From: Malacoraja senta | Lineage: Eukaryota | NCBI GenBank assembly: GCA_038087875.1 | Contig: CM075990.1 | Location: 2,606,001 to 2,670,000 of the forward strand | Direction of reading: 5' to 3' | Length of the DNA stretch: 64,000 nt | Part shown: positions 1,140-64,000 of the stretch, in pieces | Numbering within the stretch: the first letter of the stretch is position 1 | Layout of the letters: the number at the start of each line of letters is the position of its first letter | Notes under the pieces: model-generated | Told to the model about the DNA's origin: nothing | The model's database searches: none | The model's input: the letters and a program-made list of their open reading frames with translations, nothing else | Translations under genes and position numbers: made by a program

Positions 1140-2680
1140 CTGAGGAATGGTTGTTGGAATTTAATACTGAAAAATGTGAGGTGTTGCATTTCGGTAGACT
1201 AAAATTGGCAGGACCTACACAGTGAAAGGTAGGGCAGAAGGATTTCAGAGCGCAGGTACAGTACATAGTTCGTTGCAAATTACATCGCTGGTTGACAGAG
1301 TGGTCAAAAAGGCTTTTGGCACATTGGCCTTCATCAGTCAGAGTATTGAGTATAGAAGTTTGGATGTCATGTTGCAGTTGTATGTTGGTGAGGCTGCATC
1401 TAGAGTGTGGTCTTCAATTCATGCACTATGTTATAGGAAAGATGTTGTCAAGTTGGAAAAGTCAAGATGTTGTCAAGTTGTCCGTAGTCGGTGGGGGCGC
1501 TGCGAGCCGGCAGCCCTAGCAGCAGCGTGTTCGTTTTTTCTACTTTTTTTGTTTTTTTAGTGTGTCTTAATGTATGTTTTTAATGTCTCTTGGTGTGTCT
1601 TGTGTGGGGGGTGGTGTGGGGGGGGGGTAAGGGGGAAACCGTTTCAGCCGCCTCCTCCACGGAGAGCTCCAGCTGGCGGTGTCCTGGGCCTGGGATCCCT
1701 TGTTGGGGACCCGGAAGGAGAAGAGCTCCAACTGCCGGATCGCGGCCTACTTCTACCGCGGGCGCAGCGGGGACTTACCATCCGGAGACCCCTTGAGTGG
1801 AGCTTCGACTGCCGGCCCTGCGGTCTGCGGTGCTTCTGGCTGCGGGGACTTTAAATCTTCGACCGCCGGCCTGCGGCCAACACCATCTTGAAGCCGCGGT
1901 CTCCGGTGGGGAGGCACCGATTCAGGACTTACCTGGACTTACCTTGTCTGAACATCTGGACGCCCGCAGCGGCGGCTGCGGAGGGTTAATGTCCCGACCA
2001 CGGGGGAAAATGGAGGAGGACTGGCCAATTTTTGTGCCTTCCACCACAGTGATGAATGCTGTGGTGGATGTTTGTGTTAAATTATTATCGTGTATTGTGT
2101 GTTCTTTTTTCATTGTACCGCTGCTGGCAAATTCATTTCACTTGCACTTTATGTGCAAGTGACGAATAAAACTTGACTTGACTTGAAAAGGTGCAGAGAA
2201 GATTTACGAGGATGTTGCCAGGACTTGAGGGCCTGCGCTACAGGAAGAGATTGAGCAGGCCAGGTTTCTATTCCTTGGAGTGCAGGAGGAAGAGGCGTGA
2301 TCTTAAAGAGGTGTACAAAATCAAGAGAGTAATAGATCGGGTAGACGCACACAGTCTCTTGCCCAGAGTAGGGGAATCAAGAACCAGAGGACATAGGTTC
2401 AAGGTGAAGGGGAAAAGATTTAATAGGAATCTGTGGGCTAACCTTTTCACACAAAGGATGGTGGGTGCATGGAACAAGCTGCCAGAGGAGGTAGTTGAGG
2501 CAGGGACTATTGCAATGTGTAAGAAACATTTAGACAGGTACATGGATAGGACAGGTTTAGAGGGATATGGGCTAAACGCCAATAGGCAGGTGGGACTAGT
2601 GTAGCTGGGACATGTCGGCCGTTGTGGGCAAGTTGGGCAGAAGGGCCTGTTTCCATGCTGTATCACTCTATGACATAATG
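1140..2680 (+). mobile_element. Degraded CR1 (HER1-like) LINE 3' region interrupted by a retroposon at ~1461-2186
   Basis: Translations DRVVKKAFGTLAFISQSIEYRS.. and QRRFTRMLPGLEGL..RTRGHRFKV..FTQRMVGAWNKLP match CR1 ORF2 C-terminus; reading continues across the insert (KDVVKLEK|VQRRFTR). Confidence 0.9.
1481..2186 (+). mobile_element. GC-rich structured non-autonomous retroposon, copy B, (ACTTG)n tail
   Basis: T tract, G run + GGGGGAAAC, GC-rich body, core hairpin 2040-2068, AATAAA plus microsatellite tail; inserted in CR1. Confidence 0.75.
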
Positions 2681-8515: not shown

Positions 8516-8833
8516 TTCCATAAGAGGCGCTGGTCCATGTACAGGAAGTGTCCAGCATTCTTCACCACACTCTGCCAGCTTACCCTTTCCCTTTCTCATG
8601 CCTATCTATTGTCTGTTCCATTTGCCAAGGCCAGTCAAATGGATGATAACAAATGTAATGTTTTCACCAAAGATAGACACTAAGTGCTGGAGTAACTCAG
8701 CGGGTCAGGCAGCATCTCTGGAGAAAAAGGATGAGTGACGTTTTGGATCCGGACCCTTCTTCAGACTGAAAGTAGGGAATGGAAGGGGGGGGGAGGGGAG
8801 GGGGGCGGTGGTGAAGTGCTGTAGATGAGAAAA

Positions 8834-9865
8834 TAATAATAATAATAATAATAGATTTTATTTAAGGGCGCCTATACAAAGGTCTCAAGGACACCTTACA
8901 AAATTTAACAAAGAAACATATAATCAGAGTAAAATAAGTTATAAAGACATCACCAATACATAAATTAAAGACAGAAGTTCGATCCAAAATAGACAACAAC
9001 AAAATTCAGAAACACAATGTGAAGGGAGAGCAGCGGCAGCCAAACCGCGCCAGCGTCCACTCTCCCTTCCGACCGCCATCTTGGACATAGACTAACATAG
9101 ACACTACACATTACACACAAAATCATCCCCCCGCAATGGTCACCACTATGGGGGAAGGCACAATGTCCAGTCCTCAACCCCAGTTCTCCCCAAAGTCAGG
9201 CCTATTGAGGCCTCCACAGGTGCCTCTACGGAGGCCCGGAGTTCCTGGCCGTTCTCGCCGGGTGCCATTGCCCCGGCGTCGGGAGAGTCCTCACAGCGGC
9301 TGGGACGGCTGGAACGGCCGATTCCCTACCGGAGTCCGTGGCACCTGAAGCCGACAAGGCCGCGCCGATTTGGAGCTCTGAGGCTCCCGATGTTAAAGTC
9401 GGCGCCGCCGCCCGCGGCTGGCCGCTCCGCAGACCCGCAGCCCGGAGGTGTTGAGCTCGGCGGTCACAGCTCACCGGAGCTCCAGCGCGTCGATCCAGCG
9501 CGGCGACCCAGGCAAGGCATCGCCCGCTCCGCTCCACGATAGCGCTCCAGCACTGTGCCGCCACCGAAGCTGAAGGTGCTGGGGAGTCCCCGCCAGGAAA
9601 CGCCGCTCCAGGCCTGCTGGTAGGCCGCGAGGACGGGTCGACGGGGCAGCCCGGAGAAAAAGCTGCCTCACCGACCAGGTAGGGACCTAGAAATAGTTTC
9701 CCCCATTACCCCCCCACAAGAAAAGTCAAATTCCCCAGCAAACATAGACAGACACAGTTAACTAAAAACTAAAGAAAAAAGTGAAATTAACGGACGGCTG
9801 CTGGTTAGCTGGTTAGCAGCCGTTCCCCAAGATGGCTCCTCCTACATCTACCATCCTCCTACCAT
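8834..9865 (-). mobile_element. GC-rich structured non-autonomous retroposon, copy A1 (full length), (TAT)n tail
   Basis: TSD TGAGAAAA at 8826-8833 and 9866-9873; homologous to 38011-38386 and 63543-64000; hairpins at 9636-9676 and 9126-9155. Confidence 0.85.
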
Positions 9866-16554: not shown

Positions 16555-17742
16555 CACAAAAATGCTGGAGAAACTCAGCGGGTGCAGCAGCATCTATGGA
16601 GCGAAGGAAATAGGCAACGTTTCGGGCCAAAACTCTTCTTCAGACTGATAGGGGGTGGGGAGAAGAAAGGAAAAAAGGAAAAAGGCGGAGGAGGAGCCCG
16701 AGGGCTGGGGGAGGGGAGGAGACAACTAGAGGGCTGATGAAGGGGAGGGGACAGCAAGGGCTAGCAGAATTGGGAGAATTCAATGTTCAAGCCCCCAGGA
16801 TGCAGACTGCCCAAGCGGAATATGAGGTGCATTTCCTCCAATTTACGGTGTTGCTCGCTGAGGCCATGGAGGAGACCCAGGACAGAGAGGTCAGATACGG
16901 AATGGGAGGGGGAGTTGAAGTGCTGAGCCACCGGGAGGTCAGGTTGGCCATCGCGGACCGACCGGAGGTGTTCGGCGAAACGATCGCCAAGCCTCCGCTT
17001 GGTCTCACCGATGTAGATCAGCTGGCATCTAGAGCAGCGGATGCAATAGATGAGGTTGGAGGAGATGCAGGTGAACCTCTGTCGCACATGGAATGACTGC
17101 TTGGGTCCTTGAATGGAGACGAGGAGGGAGGTGAAGGGACAAGTGTTGCAAGGGTAAGTACCAGGGGAGGGGGTGGTATGGGAGGGAAGGGAAGAATTGA
17201 CAAGGGAGTTACGGAGGGAGCGGTCTTTGCGGAAGGCAGACATGGGGGGAGATGGGAAGATGTGGCGAGTGGTGGGGTCACGTTGGAGGTGGCGAAACTG
17301 ACGGAGGATCACTTGTTGTATGTGACGGCTGGTGGGGTGAAAGGCGAGGACTAGGGGGACTCTGCCCTTGTTGTGAGTGGGGGGATGGGGAGAGAGAGCA
17401 GTGTTGCGGGGTATGGCAGAGACCCTGGTGCGAGCCTCATCTATGGTGGAGGAGGGGAACCCCCGTTCCCTGAAGAATGAGGACATTTCAGATGCCCTGG
17501 TGTGGAACGCCTCATCCTGGGAGCAGATGCGGCGTAGACGGAGGAATTGGGAGTGGGGGATGGACTCCTTACAGGAAGCAGGGTGGGAAGAAGTTTAGTC
17601 CAGATAGCCATGGGAGTCGGTGAGTTTGTAGTGGATGTCGGTAAGGAGTCTATCACCTTCGATGGAGATAGTGAGGTCAAGGAATGGGAGGGAGGTGTCG
17701 GAAATGGTCCAGGTGTATTTGAGTGCCGGATGGAAGTAGGTT
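16555..17742 (-). mobile_element. 5'-truncated Penelope-like retroelement (RT thumb, Cys linker, GIY-YIG endonuclease, LTR)
   Basis: 14-bp TSD AAGGTTTGTAGGTT at 16541-16554 and 17743-17756 inside a SINE; coding similarity from ~17735 to 16761; hammerhead motif 16616-16643. Confidence 0.95.
16761..17486 (-). pseudogene. Penelope-like GIY-YIG endonuclease domain, open 241-codon C-terminal fragment
   Basis: FTCISSNLIYCIRCSRCQLIYIGETKRRLGDRFAEH..PVAQHFN..EMHLIFRLGSLHPGGLN; upstream RT mostly missing. Confidence 0.9.
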
Positions 17743-25964: not shown

Positions 25965-26142
25965 CTTATATACTGAACATTTTGTTGTTTATAATAGCAT
26001 TTACAGAGTTCTATGTTTACATATCTGCTGTGCTGCTGCAAGTAAGTAGTTCATTCGGGACATATGACAATAAAATACTCTTGCCTCTAAAAAAACTTGA
26101 ACTAAAACCGCTTGCTGAGGACATACTTGGTTTTATCTTGGA

Positions 26143-26425
26143 TCACAATCACAATCACAGTAATACTTTATTAGCCAAGTATGTTTTGCAACATACGAGG
26201 AATTTCATTTGCCAAGTCAGTCGTACAAATAAAAAGCAACGGAACACACAAAATACATTTCAACGTAAACATCCACCACAGTGACTCCTCCACATTCCTC
26301 ACTGTGATGGAAGGCAAAAAAAAGTTCAATCTCTTCCCTTTGTTCTCCCGTGGTCGGGGGCTTCGAGCCCTCTGTTGACGGGATGATCTTGACTCCCGTA
26401 GCCGGTGGCGGGCCTGCTGCCTTTT
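26143..26425 (-). mobile_element. GC-rich structured retroposon, copy F (5'-truncated), (GTGATT)n tail
   Basis: CCCCGACCACGGGAGAAC motif, core hairpin 26272-26311, tail resembling the Rex1 tails at 42620-42697 and 52155-52210. Confidence 0.75.
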
Positions 26426-30060: not shown

Positions 30061-31636
30061 AATGATGGGACTGAAGGCTGATAAATCCCCCAGGGCGTGA
30101 TGGTCTGCATCCCAGGGTACTTAAGGAAGTGGCTCTAGAAATCGTGGACGCATTGGTGATAATTTTCCAATGTTCTATAGATTCAGGATCAGTTCCTGTG
30201 GATTGGGGGGTAGCTAAAGTTATCCCACTTTTGAAGAAAGGCGGGAGAGAGAAAACAGGGAATTATAGACCAGTTAGCCTGACATCGGTGGTGGGGAAGA
30301 TGCTGGAGTCAATCATAAAAGATGAAATAGCGGCACATTTGGATACCAGTAACAGGATTGGTCCGAGTCAGCATGGATTTACGAAGGGGAAATCTTGCTT
30401 GACTAATCTTCTGGTATTTTTTGAGGATGTAACTAGGAAAATGGACAAGGGAGACCCAGTGGATGTGGTGTACCTGGACTTTCAGAAAGCATTTGATAAG
30501 GTCCCACATAGGAGATTAGTGGGCAAAATTAGGGCACATGGTATTGGGGGTAGAGTGCTGACATGGACAGAAAATTGGTTGGCAGACAGGAAACAAAGAG
30601 CAGGGATTAACGGGTCTCGGCAGACAGTAACTAGTGGGGTACCGCAAGGCTTGGTGCTGGGACCGCAGCTATTTACAATATACAACAATGATTTAGATGA
30701 AGGGATTCAAAGTAACATTAGCAAATTTGCAGTTGACACAAAGCTAGGTGGCAGTGTGAACTGTGAGGAAGATGCTATGAGAATGCAGGGTAACTTGGAC
30801 AGGTTGGGTGAGTGGGCAGATGCATGGCAGATGCAGTTTAATGTGGTTAAATGTGAGGTTATCCACTTTGGTAGCAAAAACAGGAAGGCAGATAATTATC
30901 TAAATGGTGTCAAAAGGGAAAAAGGGAAGTACAACGGGATCTGGGGGTCCTTGTTCATCAGTCAATGAAAGTAAGCATGCAGGCAGTGAAGAAAGCGAAT
31001 GGCATGATGGCCTTCATAACAAGTGGAGTCGAGTATAGGAGCAAACAGGTTCTTCTACAGTTGTACAGAGCCCTAGTGAGACCATACCTGGAGTATTGTG
31101 TGCAGTTTTGATCCCCTAATTTGAGGAAGGACATTCTTGCTATTGAGGGAGTGCAGCGTAGGTTAATTCTCGGGATGGCGGGACTGTCATATGATGAGAG
31201 AATGGAGCGGCTGGGCTTGTACACTCTGGAGTTTAGAAGGATGAGAAGGGATCATATTGAAACATATAAGATTATTAATGGCTTGGACACGCTAGAGGCA
31301 GGAAACCATGTTCCCGATGTTGGGGGAGTCCAGAACCAGGGGCCACAGTTTAAGAATAAGGAGTAAGCCATTTAGAACGGAGACGAGGGAACACATTTCC
31401 ACCAGAGAGTTGTGAGTCTGTGGAATTCTCTGCCTCAGAGGGTGGTGGAGGCCGGTACTCTGGATGCTTTCAAGAGAGAGCTAGATAGGACTCTTAAAGA
31501 TAGTGGAGTCAGGGGATATTGGGAGAAGGCAGGAACGGGGTACTGATTGGGGATGATCAGTCATGATCACAGTGAATGGCGGTGCTGGCTCGTAGGGCCG
31601 AATGGACTACTCCTGCACCTATTGTCTATTGTCTAT
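30061..31636 (+). mobile_element. 5'-truncated CR1 (HER1-like) LINE with RT domain
   Basis: RT ORF 30129-30968, frameshifted C-terminus, (ATTGTCT)n tail; short direct repeat TGAGTG (30055-30060, 31637-31642) inside another CR1 3' end. Confidence 0.95.
30129..30968 (+). pseudogene. CR1 ORF2 reverse transcriptase fragment
   Basis: NYRPVSLTS, QHGFTKGKSCLTNLL, YLDFQKAFDKVPH, SGVPQG; catalytic FADD reads FAVD; endonuclease domain absent. Confidence 0.95.
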
Positions 31637-33879: not shown

Positions 33880-35428
33880 AACGTCCAGCGGGGCCTGTAG
33901 ACTTTAACATCGGAAGCCTCGGTCTCTGGTAAGAAGCGGCCGATTCGGGAACTCCAAGCCGCAGAGTGTGTTCCGATCCATCCAGATGTCAGAGTTTCGA
34001 TCATCCCGGCGAGAGGGCCTGTACATCGGGCCGTCCGTAGTGGCGACTGTGGATGCTTCTAGGCCCCAACCACGGGTGAACAAAGGAGGAAGATTGACTG
34101 AACTTTATTGCCTTCCATCACAATGAGAAATGTCGATTCCACTGTGGTGGATGTTTATGTTAAATTCTATTGTGTATTGTGTTCTTTTTATTCGTATGGC
34201 TGTATGGTAACTCAATAGACAATAGTGGAGGAGTAGGTCATTTGGCCCTTTGACCTAGCACCGGCATTCAATGTGATCATGGCTGATCATCCTCAATCAG
34301 TACCCCGTTCCTGCCTTCTCCCCATGTCCCCTGACTCCGCTATCTTTAAGAGCCCTATCTAGCTCTCTCTTGAAAGTACCCAGAGAACCGGCCTCCACTG
34401 CCCTCTGAGGCAGAGAATTCCACAGACTCACAACTCTCTGTGAGAAAAAGTGTTTCCTCGTCTCCGTTCTAAATGGCTTACCCCTTATTCTTAAACTGTG
34501 AGCCCTGGTTCTGGACTCCCCCAACATCGGGAACATGGTTTCCTGCCTCTAGCGTGTCCAAGCCCTTAACAATCTTATATGTTTCAATAAGATACCATCT
34601 CATCCTTCTAAACTCCAGAGTGTACAAGCCCAGCTGCTCCATTCTCTCAGCATATGACAGTCCTGTCATCCCGGGAATTAACCTTGTAAACCTACGCTGC
34701 ACTCCCTCAATACCAAGAATGTCCTTCCTCAAATTAGGGGTCCAAAACTGCACACAATACTCCAGGTGTGGTCTCACTAGGGCCCTATACAACTGCAGAA
34801 GGACCTCTTTGCTCCTATACTCGACTCCTCTTGTTATAAATCCAACATGCCATTCACTTTCTTCACTGCCTGTTGTACCTGCATGCTTACTTTCATAGAC
34901 TGATGAACAAGGACCCTCAGATCCCATTGTACTTCCCTTTTTCACAACGTGACGCCATTTAGATGGTAATCTGCCTTCCTGTTTTTGATACCAAAGTGGA
35001 TAACCTCACATTTATTCACACTAAACTTCATCTGCCATGCATCTGCCCACTAACCCAACGTGTCCAAGTCACCCTGCATTCTCATAGCATCCTCCTCACA
35101 GTTCACACTGCCATCCAGCTTTGTGTCATCTGCAAATTTGCTAATGTTACTTTGAATCCCTTCATCCAAATCATTGATGTATATTGTAAATAGCTGCGGT
35201 CCCAGCACCGAGCCTTGCGGTACCCCACTAGTCACTGCCTGCCATTCTGAAAGGGACCTGTTGATCCCCACTCTTTGTTTCCTGTCTGCCAACCAATTTT
35301 CTAGCCATGTCAGCACTCTACCCCCAATACCATGTGCCCTAATTTTGCCCACTAATCTCCTATGTGGGACCTTATCAAATTTCACTGTACCAATTGGTGC
35401 GTGACAATAAATGTGAACTTGAACTTGA
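33880..35428 (+). mobile_element. GC-rich structured retroposon, copy E, split by a CR1
   Basis: Core hairpin 34114-34151; tail TTCACTGTACC..GTGACAATAAA..(ACTTGA)n resumes at ~35376 after the CR1. Confidence 0.7.
34215..35380 (-). mobile_element. 5'-truncated CR1 LINE with RT domain
   Basis: FDKVPHRRL..SGVPQGSVLGPQLFTIYINDL..KFADDTKL; same subfamily as 30061-31636. Confidence 0.95.
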
Positions 35429-37490: not shown

Positions 37491-38010
37491 GAAGAACGTA
37501 CAAACTCCACACAGACAGCACCCGAGGGTGGAATCGAACCCGGGTCTCCGGCACCGTGAAGCAGCAACTCTACCACCTGCGCCACTGTGCCGTACAGCAC
37601 AGTGACTGTGTCTTGGGGCCACCATGTCTGTGTCAACCATGATGCCACATTAAACTAATCCCATCTGCCTTAACATGTGATGGTTTTCCTCGAGTCCTTG
37701 CCTTTCACGTGCCCATCTTAAATAATGCTAACATTTCTGCCTCTATCACCACTCCTGGCAGCACAGCCCAGGCACCTGGCACTCTATGTATCCAAAACTC
37801 TGTATAGCAAATCCCCTTTACATTTTCTGTCTCTTACCATAAACCTGTGCCTTTATCTGACATCTCCCCACTAGAACGAGACGAACAATCTAACCTGTCA
37901 GCACATCTTATAATTTTATATACTTCTAAAAAGTATTGCCCAGGCCAACCAACACCTACACTAGTCCCACCTGCCTGACTTGGCCCATATCCCTCTAAAC
38001 CTTTCCTATC

Positions 38011-38386
38011 CTCCGTAGAGGCAACTGTGGAGGCCTCAATAGGCCTGACTTTGGGTGAACTGGGGTTGGGGACTGGACATTGTGCCTTCCCCCACAGTGG
38101 TAATCATTGTGGGGGGATGATTTTTGTGTGTAAATGATATTTTATTTTATGTCCAAGATGGCTGCCGGAAGGAGGGTGGACGCTGGTGCGCTTTATCAGC
38201 CGCTGCTCTCTCTTCCATATTGTGTTTTTGATTTTTGTTTTTGGATTGAATTCTCTCTTTAATTTGTGTACTCGTGATGTCTTTATTATTTATTTCATTC
38301 CGCTTACATGTTTCTACTATTTGTTAAACTTAAAAGGTGTCCTTGAGACTTTTGAAAGGCGCCCATAAATAAAATGTATTATTATT
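38011..38386 (+). mobile_element. GC-rich structured retroposon, copy A2 (5'-truncated)
   Basis: Homologous to 8834-9230; core hairpin 38088-38117; AAATAAAATG(TAT)n tail. Confidence 0.85.
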
Positions 38387-38647
38387 ATCTATGTACCTGT
38401 CCATATGTCTTCATTAAAATTTGATATACTTCTTAATAGGTGCTCCGACAGATTAATCTGGAGTATGGTGTAGCCACATTTGGAGTATTGTGTTCAGTTT
38501 TGGTCTGCCTGCTGTAGTGAAGATGCTGTTAAGCTCTAAAGAATGCAGAGAAGATTTACAAGGATATCGCCAGGATTCGAGGGCCTGAGCTATAGGGAGA
38601 GGTGAGGCAGGTTAGGACTCTATTCCTTGGAGGATGAGAGATGCTTT

Positions 38648-42338: not shown

Positions 42339-42776
42339 GAGGTCTAAGGAAATGAAAGGCACCTGTTTAGGCACATTAAAATACAAGATTCCAGCATTTG
42401 CACTCGTTTGAGAAACCGCTGCCTGGACATTTAGTAGAAGGCAAGATCTTCAGTGCTAAGTGGCATTGAATAGCTCATCCCTGTGGAAAAACCATCAGAG
42501 CATCCTACATCACAGTTATTTAATTCACATGTTTAACCGATAATGTTTTATTGTTAATGTTTAATGTTTTATGTGTCATTCCAACTGTCACTGTATGTCA
42601 TGTTGTCACTTGCGGGCAGAGCACCAAGGCAAATTCCTTGTATGTGAATACTTGGCCAATAAAGTTATTCATTCATTCATTCATTCATTCATTCATTTAG
42701 TGAGCAGCGTAGACTGAGGCCTGGGTCTAGGAGGGAGTGTTGAAGATAGGAAGGTTTAGAACAGCCACTGTCCAAT

Positions 42777-43542
42777 AGGGGCGCTGCATTGAAGGCGCCT
42801 CTGCCTACAGCCTGTCCGTTTTTTCTATATTTTTTTAATTTTAGTTTGTCTAAACAGTTTTGGGGATACTTTAGTTTTTCTATGTGGGGGAGGGGGGGAG
42901 GGTAAGGGGGAAACCGTTTCCCAGTCGCTTCCTGGCGAGGACGCGACTATTTCTCCAAGTCGCGTCCTCCCCCCCACCTCGCGGCCTACCACTGGTTCGG
43001 AGCAGTCTTTCCTACCAGAGACCGGGGCCCGGACCAGAGCTTCGGCAGCAGCGGCGCGGCGCTGGATTCACCACGGAGCAGGCGGTGCCTTCCTGGATCG
43101 CCGTATGAGGCTCCGGAGCGTTGGGCGGTGCTGACTCCAACATCGCGTAGTCCCTGGGGCCCTTTGCAGAGGGCCGCCAGCGTTGAATCTCCGCCTGTGG
43201 ACGTCGTGAGCCGCGGAATCCGGTGGGAAGCGGCCGTTTTGGAGGTCCAAGCCGCTGTGGTTGGCCTCCCGTTCGGAGTTCCAACATCCCGGCGAGCGGG
43301 CCTGAGCGGCGGGCTGCCCGTAGCGGCGACTGCAGAGGGCTCCGGAGGCCCCGACCACGGGTGAACATGAAAGGAAGATGACTGACTTTGGTGCCTTCCC
43401 TCACAGTGGGAAACTTTTAATTCTGTTGTGTGGGGATGTTTTATGTTGAACTCTATCGTGTGTTGTATTCTTTATTTTTATTGTATTGCTGTATGGTGAT
43501 CAACTGGCACGTGACAAATAAATGTATCTTGTATCTTGTGTC
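42777..43542 (+). mobile_element. GC-rich structured retroposon, copy C (full length), (TATCTTG)n tail
   Basis: Head CCTACAGCCTGTCCGT, T tract, GGGGGAAAC, perfect 12-bp hairpin 42937-42969, core 43397-43436. Confidence 0.8.
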
Positions 43543-52154: not shown

Positions 52155-52634
52155 TTGAATGAATAAGTTTATTGGCCAAGTATGTACACATACAAGGAAT
52201 TTGCCTTGGTGCTCCGCTCGCAAGTAACAACACGACATACAGTAAACAATTAAGAATAAAACATAAAACATTAAACATTAAGAATAAAACATTATAGTTT
52301 AAACATGTGAATGAAATAAAATACCAGGGCAAAAGGAGGCTACAGACTTTTGGTTATTCAGTAGAGCTACTGCTCGTGGAAAAAAGCTGTTTTTATGTCT
52401 GGCTGTGGCGGGTTTGACAGTCTGGAGTCGCCTTCCGGTGGGAAGTGATTCAAAGAGTTTGTGGCCACGGTGAGAGGGGTCAGAGATGATCTTACGCGCT
52501 CGCTTCCTGGCCCTTGCAGTGTATAGTTCGTCAATAGTGGGAAGGTTGCAGCCAACAACCTTCTCAGCTGATCGAACGATTCGCTGCAGCCCTCCGGATG
52601 TCGTGCTTGGAGGCTGAGCCAAACCAGACCATAA
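52155..52634 (-). mobile_element. Rex1/Babar LINE 3' end, (TTCA)n-tail subfamily
   Basis: LQRIVRSAEKVVGCNLP..SDPSHRGHKLFESLPTGRR..RHKNSFFPRAV. Confidence 0.9.
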
Positions 52635-54069
52635 TGGTTTGGCTCAGCCTCCCAGTAGATACAGCCTCCCAGTAGATACAAACATCCAGTAGATACAAAG
52701 AACTGCTGATGCTGGTTTACAAAGAAGAAGGGTCCCGACCCACAGCGTCACCTATCCATGTTCTCCAGGGATGCTGCCTGACCCGCTGAGTTACTCCATC
52801 ACTTTGTATCTATCTTTGGTATAAACCAACATCTGCAGTTACTTGTTTCTAAAGCTTAATGTAGTGTCCAGTGTTGATCACAGTGAACAAGTCTTAATGT
52901 TGGAGATCGATGGTGTTACGTTGAGGCATCAGAACCTTTCTGTTGGCCATGGAGTTGTAATCTAACAGTGGCCACTATTGTTAGTGGGGGAAGATTGAAG
53001 ATTATTATCAGATTGTTCAGTGGAGTGAAGAAGGTTCATCCAGGCCAGAAAATAAAGAGATGTCAATAGAGGTACTGTTCTTTTAAAATGGTTTCATTTG
53101 CAAACTGAAGGTGAACCGTTTTACTGGAGTAACTCAGCGGGTCAGGCAGCATCCCTGGAGAGCATGGATAGGTGACGTGGCGGGTCGGGACCCTTCTTCT
53201 TTGTAAACCAGCATCTGCAGTTCCTTATATCTACTGGGAGAGATTTACTGTGGAGGAAAGAACTGCAGGTGCTGGTTTTGGACACAAAAGCTGGAGTAAC
53301 TCAGCGGGTCAGACAGCATCTCTGAAGAAAAGGAAGATCTGACATATTGGTAAATTGCAGTATGTATGTATTGATCCAGGAGGACAGTTTTGTTTAGATT
53401 AGCTTGGTTCAGTTTAGTTTAGTTTTGTTTAATTTCATTTAATTTTGTTTCATTTCATTTAGTTTGGAGATTTACTTTAGTTTAATTTAGTTTAGTTTAG
53501 TTCAGTTTAGTTTCATTTTGTTTAGAGATTTAAACTTTGCTTTAGACTTTGGAGATGGAAACATCCCTTCGGCCCACTGAGACCGTGCCGACCAGTGATC
53601 ACCCTGTATGCTTGTACTATTCTACACGCTAGGAACAATTTACAATTTACAGAAGCCAATTAACCTACAAACCTGCAAATCCTCCATTAACAATGAGTGT
53701 GGAAAGAAACTGGAGCACCCGGAGAAAACCACCACTGTCACAGGGAGAAGGTACAAACTCCGTATAGACAGGCCCCATAGTCAGTATCGAACCCGGGTCT
53801 CTGGCACTGTCAGTCAGCAATTATAACTACTCCACTCTGCTACCCTAATACAGCATGGAAATGGGCCCTTCAGCCCATCCAGTCCACACTGACCATTTAT
53901 CACCCATTCACTAAGGGTATTTTTATGGAGGCCCAATCAACCTACAAAGTCGCACATCTTTGGGATGTGGGAGGTTCCGCGACCTTATGTCTACCATGCA
54001 TTAAGTTCATCTGCACTCAAATTGTTGGTTTGTCTCACATTCTGGAACACTGTGCATAGTGTTAATATG

Positions 54070-57290: not shown

Positions 57291-58153
57291 AGTGCGACGG
57301 CGCGGATTACTGCCGCGGCCCCTACAGCCTGTCTGTCTTTTTTTAATTTTTGTCTAGTTAAATGTAGTTGTTTGTGTTTTTTTAATACTGATTTTAACTG
57401 TGTATATGTGGGGGCGGGGGGGGGAGGGGGAAACTTTAAAAAATCTCTTCCCTGCACGGGAGACCCGACCTTTTCCCTGTCGGGTCTCCGTTGTCGTTGG
57501 GGCCTAGCTCCGTGGAGCGGCCTCCGACCGGGACGACCTGGGGGCTCCAGTCGCGGAGCCTGTGGAGCTGCGGACTTACCATCGTGGGGCTGGCCGGCCT
57601 CGGAGCGTGGGGAGCGGTGGTGGCTCGCTGCTGCGGCCCGACTCCGGAGCTCCAGCTGCAGACCTGTGGACTATGATATCGGGAGCTCGCGGGTCCGGGT
57701 GAGAGACTGCTTTCCGGAGCTCCCGCAACGCAACTTCTCCCGCCCGTGTCGCGGGGTTGGAACGACCCGAAGCGGGGCCGTAAATCGCCCGGCGCGGCTT
57801 TAATGGCCGCAGGACATTCCAGCGCCTGCCGGGGGCTCCAACTTTGTGACTTTTGGGCCGGAGCGAGGCCGTACACCGGCAGGCGCGGCCTTGAATGGCC
57901 GTGGGACTTAACATTGCCCGCCTGGGGCTTCAACATCGGGAGAAAAATGGTGCAGGGGAGAGAAAAGACTTTGCCTTCCATCACAGTGAGGAGGAGATTC
58001 ACTGTGATGGATGTTTTTCTGTAAATTGAATTGTTTGTGTGTCTTGTAGGAATTGTTTTGTTTGTATGGCTGTGGAAACGGAGTTTCGTTTGAGCCTCTT
58101 TGAGGTACAAATGACAAGAAATAAAATCTAATCTAATCTAATCTAATCTAATC
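57291..58153 (+). mobile_element. GC-rich structured retroposon, copy D (full length), (ATCTA)n tail
   Basis: Head CCTACAGCCTGTCTGT, T tract, GGGGGAAAC, perfect 11-bp hairpin 57459-57489, perfect 13-bp core hairpin 57977-58011. Confidence 0.8.
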
Positions 58154-63542: not shown

Positions 63543-64000
63543 TAGGAGGAGGAGCCATCTTGGGGGAACGGCTGCTAACCAGCAGCTGTCCGTTAAATTC
63601 ACTTTTTTTTTTAGTTTTTAGTGAATTCTGTCTATGTTTGCTGGGGAATTTGACTTTTCATGTGGGGGGGTAATGGGGGAAACTATTTTCTAGGTCCCTA
63701 CCTGGTCGGTGAGGCAGCTTTTTCTCCGGGCTGTCCCGTCGGCCCGTCCTTGCGGCCTACCAGCGGGCCTGGAGCGGCGTTCCCTGGCGGGGACCGCCCA
63801 GCACCTTCAGCTTCGGTGGCGGCACAGCGCTGGAGCGCTATCGCGGAGTGGAGCGGGCGATGCATTGCCTGGGTCGCCGCGCTGGATCGACGCGCTGGAG
63901 CTCCAGTGAGCTGTGACCGGCGAGTTCAACACCTCCGGGCTGCGGGACTGCGGAGCGGCCAGCCGCGGGCGGCGGCACCGACTCTAACATCGGGAGCCTC
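63543..64000 (+). mobile_element. GC-rich structured retroposon, copy A3 (5' half, cut by window end)
   Basis: Close reverse-complement match to 9385-9845. Confidence 0.85.

Follow-up and report, generated by a model that had tools for sequence, protein, structure and literature searches.

A covarying hairpin in the 5′ part of an abundant, non-coding, LINE-tailed retroposon superfamily of Malacoraja senta

Elements and hairpins of the window

The window, by which is meant the whole stretch of 64,000 nucleotides from Malacoraja senta contig CM075990.1 (positions 2,606,001 to 2,670,000), contains full-length copies of a non-coding retroposon at 42772–43538 on the plus strand (family A), at 57291–58153 on the plus strand (family B) and at 8832–9842 on the minus strand (family C). 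A further family C copy at 63548–64000 (plus) is cut by the window end, and a family D copy is located at 1487–2186 (plus). Copies truncated at the 5′ end were identified at 33885–34215 (plus; with the second paired structure, H2; ends approximate), at 26137–26400 (minus; with H2 and a tail; 5′ end approximate) and at 38010–38388 (plus; family C, with H2 and a tail that we take to be L2-like).

A preliminary description of this DNA had reported a hairpin, here H1, in the 5′ part of these repeats, and its four strings matched the sequence at 42937–42969 (plus, family A), 57459–57489 (plus, family B), 9636–9676 (minus, family C) and 63704–63744 (plus, the family C copy at the window end). All four lie inside one superfamily of non-coding retroposons, mostly 0.7–1.0 kb long, and each begins about 20–25 nt past the motif GGGGGAAAC, shortly 3′ of it as described. 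The stems of families A and B are indeed perfect, over 12 bp with a loop of 9 nt in this copy and over 11 bp, respectively, and that of family C includes G-U pairs and one mismatch. The minimum-energy structure of the H1 sequence at 63704 is a different fold, and over 96 nt the stability of the two C-type window copies was not above that of shuffles (z −0.7 and −0.5). An internal deletion has taken about 200 nt, H1 included, out of the family D copy; the hairpin is retained in other copies of this family. The window has four perfect hairpins that pair over 11 bp or more and have loops of 7–11 nt; three of them lie inside these elements, and none occurred in any of ten block shuffles of the window.

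From its 5′ end, the element opens with a GC block (about 45 nt), which is followed by a T-rich stretch and by a G-run that closes with GGGGGAAAC. A pyrimidine tract then leads to H1 and GGCCTA; next come the GC-rich body, in which an AACATC/ACCATC core recurs, and H2. The tail, last of all, contains AATAAA and a microsatellite. In the family A copy these are the 5′ terminal GC block (42772–42815), the T-rich stretch with several runs of at least four T (42816–42882), the G-rich run ending in GGGGGAAAC, across which a G-quadruplex is predicted in the family consensuses (42883–42914), the pyrimidine tract, a nested competitor for the G-run (42915–42936), GGCCTA, where the first degenerate core unit starts (42983–42988), H2, with compensatory changes between families (43392–43437), and a LINE-type 3′ tail of Rex1/Babar type whose stem is partly deleted here and which ends in AATAAA and a short tandem repeat (43490–43538), all on the plus strand. 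The G-run and H2 are at 57407–57434 and 57977–58011 (within 57972–58012) in the family B copy, and at 9696–9718 and 9125–9160 in the family C copy, which has an L2-like tail; H2 of the family D copy is at 2035–2069.

The genome, 1.94 Gb as searched, contained at least 11,195 matches to a head pattern against 31 for the reversed control, and at least 8,340 to an H2 pattern against none, both counts being of exact matches and thus lower bounds. The repeats of this genome appear similar to those of cartilaginous fishes. Ninety heads were fetched among the first 100 matches listed, and 81 were kept in unbiased counts after duplicate removal. H2 was reached in 73 of these 81, 100–654 nt on; the remaining eight were interrupted, deleted or ran into N, with one of the eight leading into a Rex-type RT fragment. 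Clustering of 153 copies, other loci included, gave at least 13 families with at least four sampled copies each and 14 singletons, where the preliminary description had recognised three subfamilies. Dispersed relatives of the window copies showed 87–97% identity in three families; the fourth gave split matches. A pattern of the stem only, in its commonest type, matched 3,415 times against 10 for the control, self-complementary matches entering this count twice. H1 accordingly belongs to the family consensuses genome-wide and is no quirk of the window copies. Family B sequence was also present in sequencing runs of nine organisms from 12 studies, six of the rows having a share below 0.25. RNA data sets were absent among the runs listed for it, which speaks neither for nor against expression.

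Within the body, whose length varies, the cores recur about 55–75 nt apart in families F05, F07 and F10, and most 100-nt windows of it, a few excepted, folded near the shuffle level. H2 was 95% paired over the seven window copies, with double changes at two of its nine pairs, and within it lies a buried CACAG, preceded by a pyrimidine tract in the manner of a masked splice acceptor. Splicing to this CACAG was seen in none of the 15 joints shown (of 20), a weak result from four runs taken as RNA by guess. We noticed separately that body cores of the ACTTACC type resemble splice donors on the opposite strand (1777–1782, 1920–1945 and 57578–57583), two of them in tandem in family D.

Among the other features of the window, an abundant SINE-like repeat of about 330 nt ending in (TAAAC)n, which we take to resemble HE1/V-SINE, dominates the sequence. 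A reverse transcriptase fragment of 297 aa is encoded at 30075–30968 (RVT_1, E 2e-30), and an open frame of 277 aa at 16761–17594 on the minus strand matched GIY-YIG weakly (E 3e-4, below cut-off) and is possibly a Penelope-like fragment. A perfect 18-bp hairpin with an 8-nt loop at 52609–52652 overlaps the 5′ junction of a truncated Rex-type LINE fragment.

Tails, 5′ ends and coding content

LINEs with the PF09004 domain, which we assign to the Rex1/Babar clade as an assumption of ours, are abundant in the genome. Two full ORFs of such LINEs contained RVT_1, PF09004 and a weak endonuclease match, and the two full elements had a AAGATGGCG-type 5′ end without H1. The retroposon superfamily has at least five exchangeable tail types, and single head families carry different tails. 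Among 73 sampled tails, 27, 10 and 9 belonged to three types that were also found after the C-terminus of Rex1/Babar-type ORFs (46 of 73); six were of a fourth type, four were L2-like, again presumably, and 17 were unclassified. None of the 10 autonomous PF09004 loci covered contains H1 or the body, so that a simple internal deletion of one LINE is no more than a candidate origin, and no autonomous carrier of the head was found among the 81 sampled heads. For the first 70 nt of two LINEs, alignment to the heads exceeded that of shuffles in 11 of 13 families with one LINE and in 6 of 13 with the other, which may reflect a shared layout of GC followed by T.

Short flank matches were present in 9 of 44 copies and had no fixed length; no regular target-site duplication was seen. 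A solo LTR or proviral sequence was rejected on the microsatellite tails and the lack of a fixed-length duplication. With tails shared with LINEs, dispersed 5′-truncated copies and no coding content, the element is a non-autonomous non-LTR retroposon.

Some observations on the LINEs themselves were made alongside. At locus L135 an element body is joined in the same orientation to a Rex-type reverse transcriptase fragment, either by insertion or as a template-switch chimera. In three Rex-type LINEs (L123, L124 and L126) the single ORF begins at an ATG inside the terminal YY1-like motif, and the T-rich stretch of L126 codes for a hydrophobic N-terminus.

At the 5′ ends of the elements, a motif that we regard as CTCF-like is followed by one that we regard as YY1-like (42772–42800 in the window, loci L271–L279 and the best-kept families). 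This pattern had 376 exact matches in the genome against none for the control, and 9 of 10 loci with it reached the G-motif 127–150 nt on. H1 sits in a CpG-rich head with promoter-like motifs. Runs of at least four T follow the first 40–60 nt of the sampled heads and lie within the first 60–100 nt, and such runs terminate RNA polymerase III. Transcription by polymerase III is therefore unlikely, given these early T-runs and the lack of a small-RNA head among those looked for, and the 5′ GC block is likely to act as an internal RNA polymerase II promoter, as far as its motifs can tell. In 17 of 20 family C loci, H2 is followed by another YY1-like block and by the L2-like tail; in the full-length window copy of this family the YY1-like motifs at 9075–9083, after H2, and at 9827–9842, at the 5′ end (minus strand), are in opposite orientations, and another is at 38154–38162. 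The family C sequence beyond H2 resembles a LINE 5′ end that was captured, plus a tail.

Pfam gave no match on five open frames of the element, and the coding search returned a single weak tblastn hit (E 0.69). No conserved upstream peptide was evident either: a start was present in 26 of 81 copies, and the frames, mostly of 13–28 aa, had no fixed length. Rfam found no match at gathering level over the whole window and, at E ≤ 2 over 12 loci, five weak hits of which none covered H1. The ARAGORN scan detected no tRNA, a weak test for decayed heads. A polymerase III-type SINE was rejected, as no tRNA, 5S, 7SL or snRNA head was found and internal T-runs are present.

The H1 stem, its loop and competing readings

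The stems, called unrelated in the preliminary description, proved to be homologous and alignable column by column; its other statement, that pairing is kept while the stem sequences differ, was borne out. In an alignment of 19 family representatives, made via the arms, 85.3% of the cells of a 13-pair stem were paired, a count lowered by two family B rows that stand one column off register, and double changes were present at 11 of the 13 pairs. The covariation score and the percentage paired were matched by none of 500 shuffles, tests that overstate significance because the families are related, and slid registers gave 38–51%. In the inner 8 bp, 126 of 136 cells were paired despite at least 36 substitutions on a family tree made without the hairpin columns, one singleton being placed by hand. 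RNAalifold also recovered H1.

Wobble pairs in the stem were biased, with 18 G-U against 6 A-C in 15 of the 19 rows (four with stem indels were left out), on a plus strand whose G-richness by itself favours G-U pairs; this excess points to plus-strand RNA. The plus strand gave the better fold in all 13 families (z −3.1 to −7.2). The ensemble probability of the H1 stem was 0.81–1.00 in 12 of the 13, and 0.24 in context for family D, and the loop was unpaired with a probability of 0.74–1.00 in an ensemble model without pseudoknots. In sequencing runs of four other organisms, the family B hairpin had its common variants in the loop and the outer 5′ arm; no such variant touched its inner stem or its 3′ arm. 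Given the covariation, the pairing kept through substitutions, the wobble bias, the variant pattern and the covariation of H2, the stems are considered homologous and selected, and H1 is very probably a selected RNA hairpin of a non-coding LINE-tailed element.

The loop had been described as a conserved pyrimidine loop of 9 nt. Its pyrimidine-rich character was upheld (82% pyrimidine), the fixed length was not: loops measured 7–11 nt among 17 family representatives, with 9 nt only in some, and the stem-only search gave the same picture. Majority identity was 0.73 in the loop, 0.77 and 0.71 in the arms, and 0.57–0.58 in the unpaired linkers. Such variation of the loop in both length and sequence, at a conservation that does not exceed that of the arms, would suit a loose ligand or the lack of one.

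It had further been suggested that the loop pairs with the upstream GGGGGAAA, forming a pseudoknot atop the long stem. The complementarity is real, 89.3% of the cells being pairable, and at 89–91% paired it had the top percentage among the listed best of 423 seven-pair helices involving the loop. The base order of the loop pairs better than that of shuffled loops (p ≤ 0.05) in 9 of 13 families, which are related and include three that lack the arm–loop alternative described below; a rough energy, calculated as duplex energy plus an assumed penalty of 9 kcal/mol, differed from that of the nested helix by no more than 1.5 kcal/mol in 7 of 13 families; and GGGGAAAC was exact in 17 of 27 copies found via the stem alone. 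The expected covariation of loop and G-run was nonetheless absent. The anchored alignment had no double change, 500 of 500 shuffles paired equally well, and registers slid by −1 and −2 were still 87–88% paired, although this test is of low power because the G-run is near-invariant and was used as the search anchor. As 16 of the 423 helices were at least 80% paired, a pyrimidine loop suits many G-rich stretches. The G-run also has competing partners. Its nested helix with the pyrimidine tract before H1 was 86% paired without covariation (ensemble probability 0.21–0.95) and stronger by 1.7–12.6 kcal/mol in 6 of 13 families, RNAalifold paired it with a third, downstream pyrimidine stretch, and a G-quadruplex across the G-rich run is predicted in the minimum-energy fold of all 13 families; in family F10 the complementarity to the loop is lost. 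A pseudoknot is thus possible and compatible with the data, next to three other candidate fates of the G-run, and as an account of the loop we hold it to be rather unlikely. A transient hairpin, formed between the outer 5′ arm and the loop during transcription and then displaced by the long stem, is a lead equal to it. This pairing reached 88% with double changes at four of seven pairs; the first arm base and last loop base were paired in 17 of 17 rows through five pair types, it ranked first of the 423 helices by distinct double changes (six types), and it was better than shuffled loops in 6 of 13 families. It was, however, found post hoc, poorly aligned G-rich columns gave almost as much noise (five types against six), both key bases have other partners in the outer stem pair and the loop-closing pair, and the short hairpin is weaker than the long one by 11–26 kcal/mol and weak in families A and F11. 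Such a folding switch appears quite unlikely. Kissing between the loops of H1 and H2 was also considered and was rejected by eye, the 5-nt H2 loop of family C giving no fit.

A different origin of the paired arms would be that the inverted repeat acts as DNA, as a cruciform or a dimeric factor site in an internal promoter, or that template switching copies one arm into the other. The arms of several families are perfect Watson-Crick complements and H1 lies among the promoter-like motifs of the CpG-rich head, as this reading would have it; but G-U is kept over A-C, most stem columns change while pairing persists, unlike a factor site, and mismatches shared by whole families persist, unlike arm copying. 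We consider it very unlikely. The comparison with ribozyme-like or IRES-like folds in the preliminary description fared worst. The region is structured, and PMC5786205 describes LINEs of which some have HDV-like ribozymes at their 5′ ends, yet the Rfam searches returned nothing in the window at gathering level or over H1 at E ≤ 2, and an HDV descriptor, itself unvalidated on a known ribozyme, hit none of the 13 consensuses on either strand and 2 of 78 shuffles. The block 60–200 nt upstream was retained in at least 67 of 81 copies, so the 5′ ends of the elements are not set by a cut at H1, and no conserved ORF follows that an IRES could serve, the only start, in 26 of 81 copies, being upstream. 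That the H1 region is an HDV-type self-cleaving ribozyme or an IRES is hardly credible.

A proposed life cycle and its relation to known systems

From the observed layout, copy number, covariation, wobble bias, LINE-type tails, 5′ truncations and non-coding nature, the preferred reading, H1 as a covarying stem-loop folding in plus-strand RNA in the 5′ part of a high-copy LINE-tailed element, may be extended as follows. The element would be transcribed by RNA polymerase II from its CTCF/YY1-like 5′ block, and the RNA would fold H1 and H2. Through its tail, recognised by a LINE reverse transcriptase, the element would be mobilised in trans by LINEs of the Rex1/Babar type and by L2-like ones, and selection on the stem would act in the active master copies. 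The H1 loop would be mostly unpaired, the G-run being occupied by the nearby tract or a G-quadruplex, and may offer a protein a handle that favours stability or delivery and aids pick-up by the LINE reverse transcriptase; the putative ligand is a host pyrimidine-binding protein. For the mechanism as a whole, from polymerase II transcript through H1 handle to LINE trans mobilisation, we see slightly less than an even chance, the functional steps being read from sequence.

No description of the element was found among the papers listed by literature searches, and a repeat library such as Repbase or Dfam may list it under a different name. It is apparently an undescribed variant of the non-autonomous non-LTR retroposons. 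A bolder view, which we find doubtful, is that of an undescribed polymerase II-type, ribozyme-free superfamily in which the 5′ RNA domain of G-run, tract and switchable-loop hairpin might be a portable module for hijacking LINE proteins, like the Alu domain for L1, so that by tail swaps one head could ride two LINE clades and seed CTCF-like sites. Effects on genome organisation are conceivable for the CTCF-like 5′ ends, and the families would form a natural set of compensatory variants from which to learn what a passenger RNA needs besides its tail.

Primate SVA/LAVA elements are composite and non-coding, with a G/C-rich tract, a structured 5′ domain and a GC-rich body of variable length, and by description the present element is alike in all of these. 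SVA is mobilised by L1 and has poly(A) and regular target duplications, unlike the microsatellite tails and lack of a regular duplication here.

Among the systems covered in the available text of PMC5786205, the HDV-like ribozymes at LINE 5′ ends are comparable to H1 in that a structured RNA lies close to where a non-LTR element begins, but their fold was not found here and the present elements start about 130 nt before the G-run. The CORE, V, Deu and Meta SINEs of the same paper likewise have a core common to diverged families, tail exchange and thousands of copies; they differ from the present elements, in which no tRNA, 5S or 7SL head was found, T-runs come early, most lengths are 0.7–1.0 kb and the core is conserved as structure. 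The chondrichthyan SINEs in the consulted parts of PMC5499810 and PMC3747384 are tRNA-headed. In the part of PMC13343379 covered, Rex1 is without ORF1 and has repeated subunits near some 5′ UTRs, and a word search of that part returned no non-autonomous elements. The bird SINEs of PMC7245038, whose GC-rich heads of unknown origin are placed upstream of bipartite RTE sequences, resemble the element in combining a GC-rich head not derived from a small RNA with LINE-derived ends; they belong with another LINE clade, and a covarying hairpin goes unmentioned in the excerpts of that paper. The bipartite non-autonomous LINEs (RIME, NARTc, Bov-A and RTESINE) are likewise non-coding, with a LINE-type 3′ tail, no small-RNA head and likely polymerase II transcription. 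As listed in the available text of PMC5786205, these derive from RTE, Ingi, Vingi and R2 only, whereas here one head is combined with several tails, of Rex1/Babar type and L2-like. With more than 11,000 copies, an RNA structure that outlasts deep sequence change and a swapping of these two kinds of tail, the element would extend that list of four source LINE clades for retroposons without a polymerase III head.
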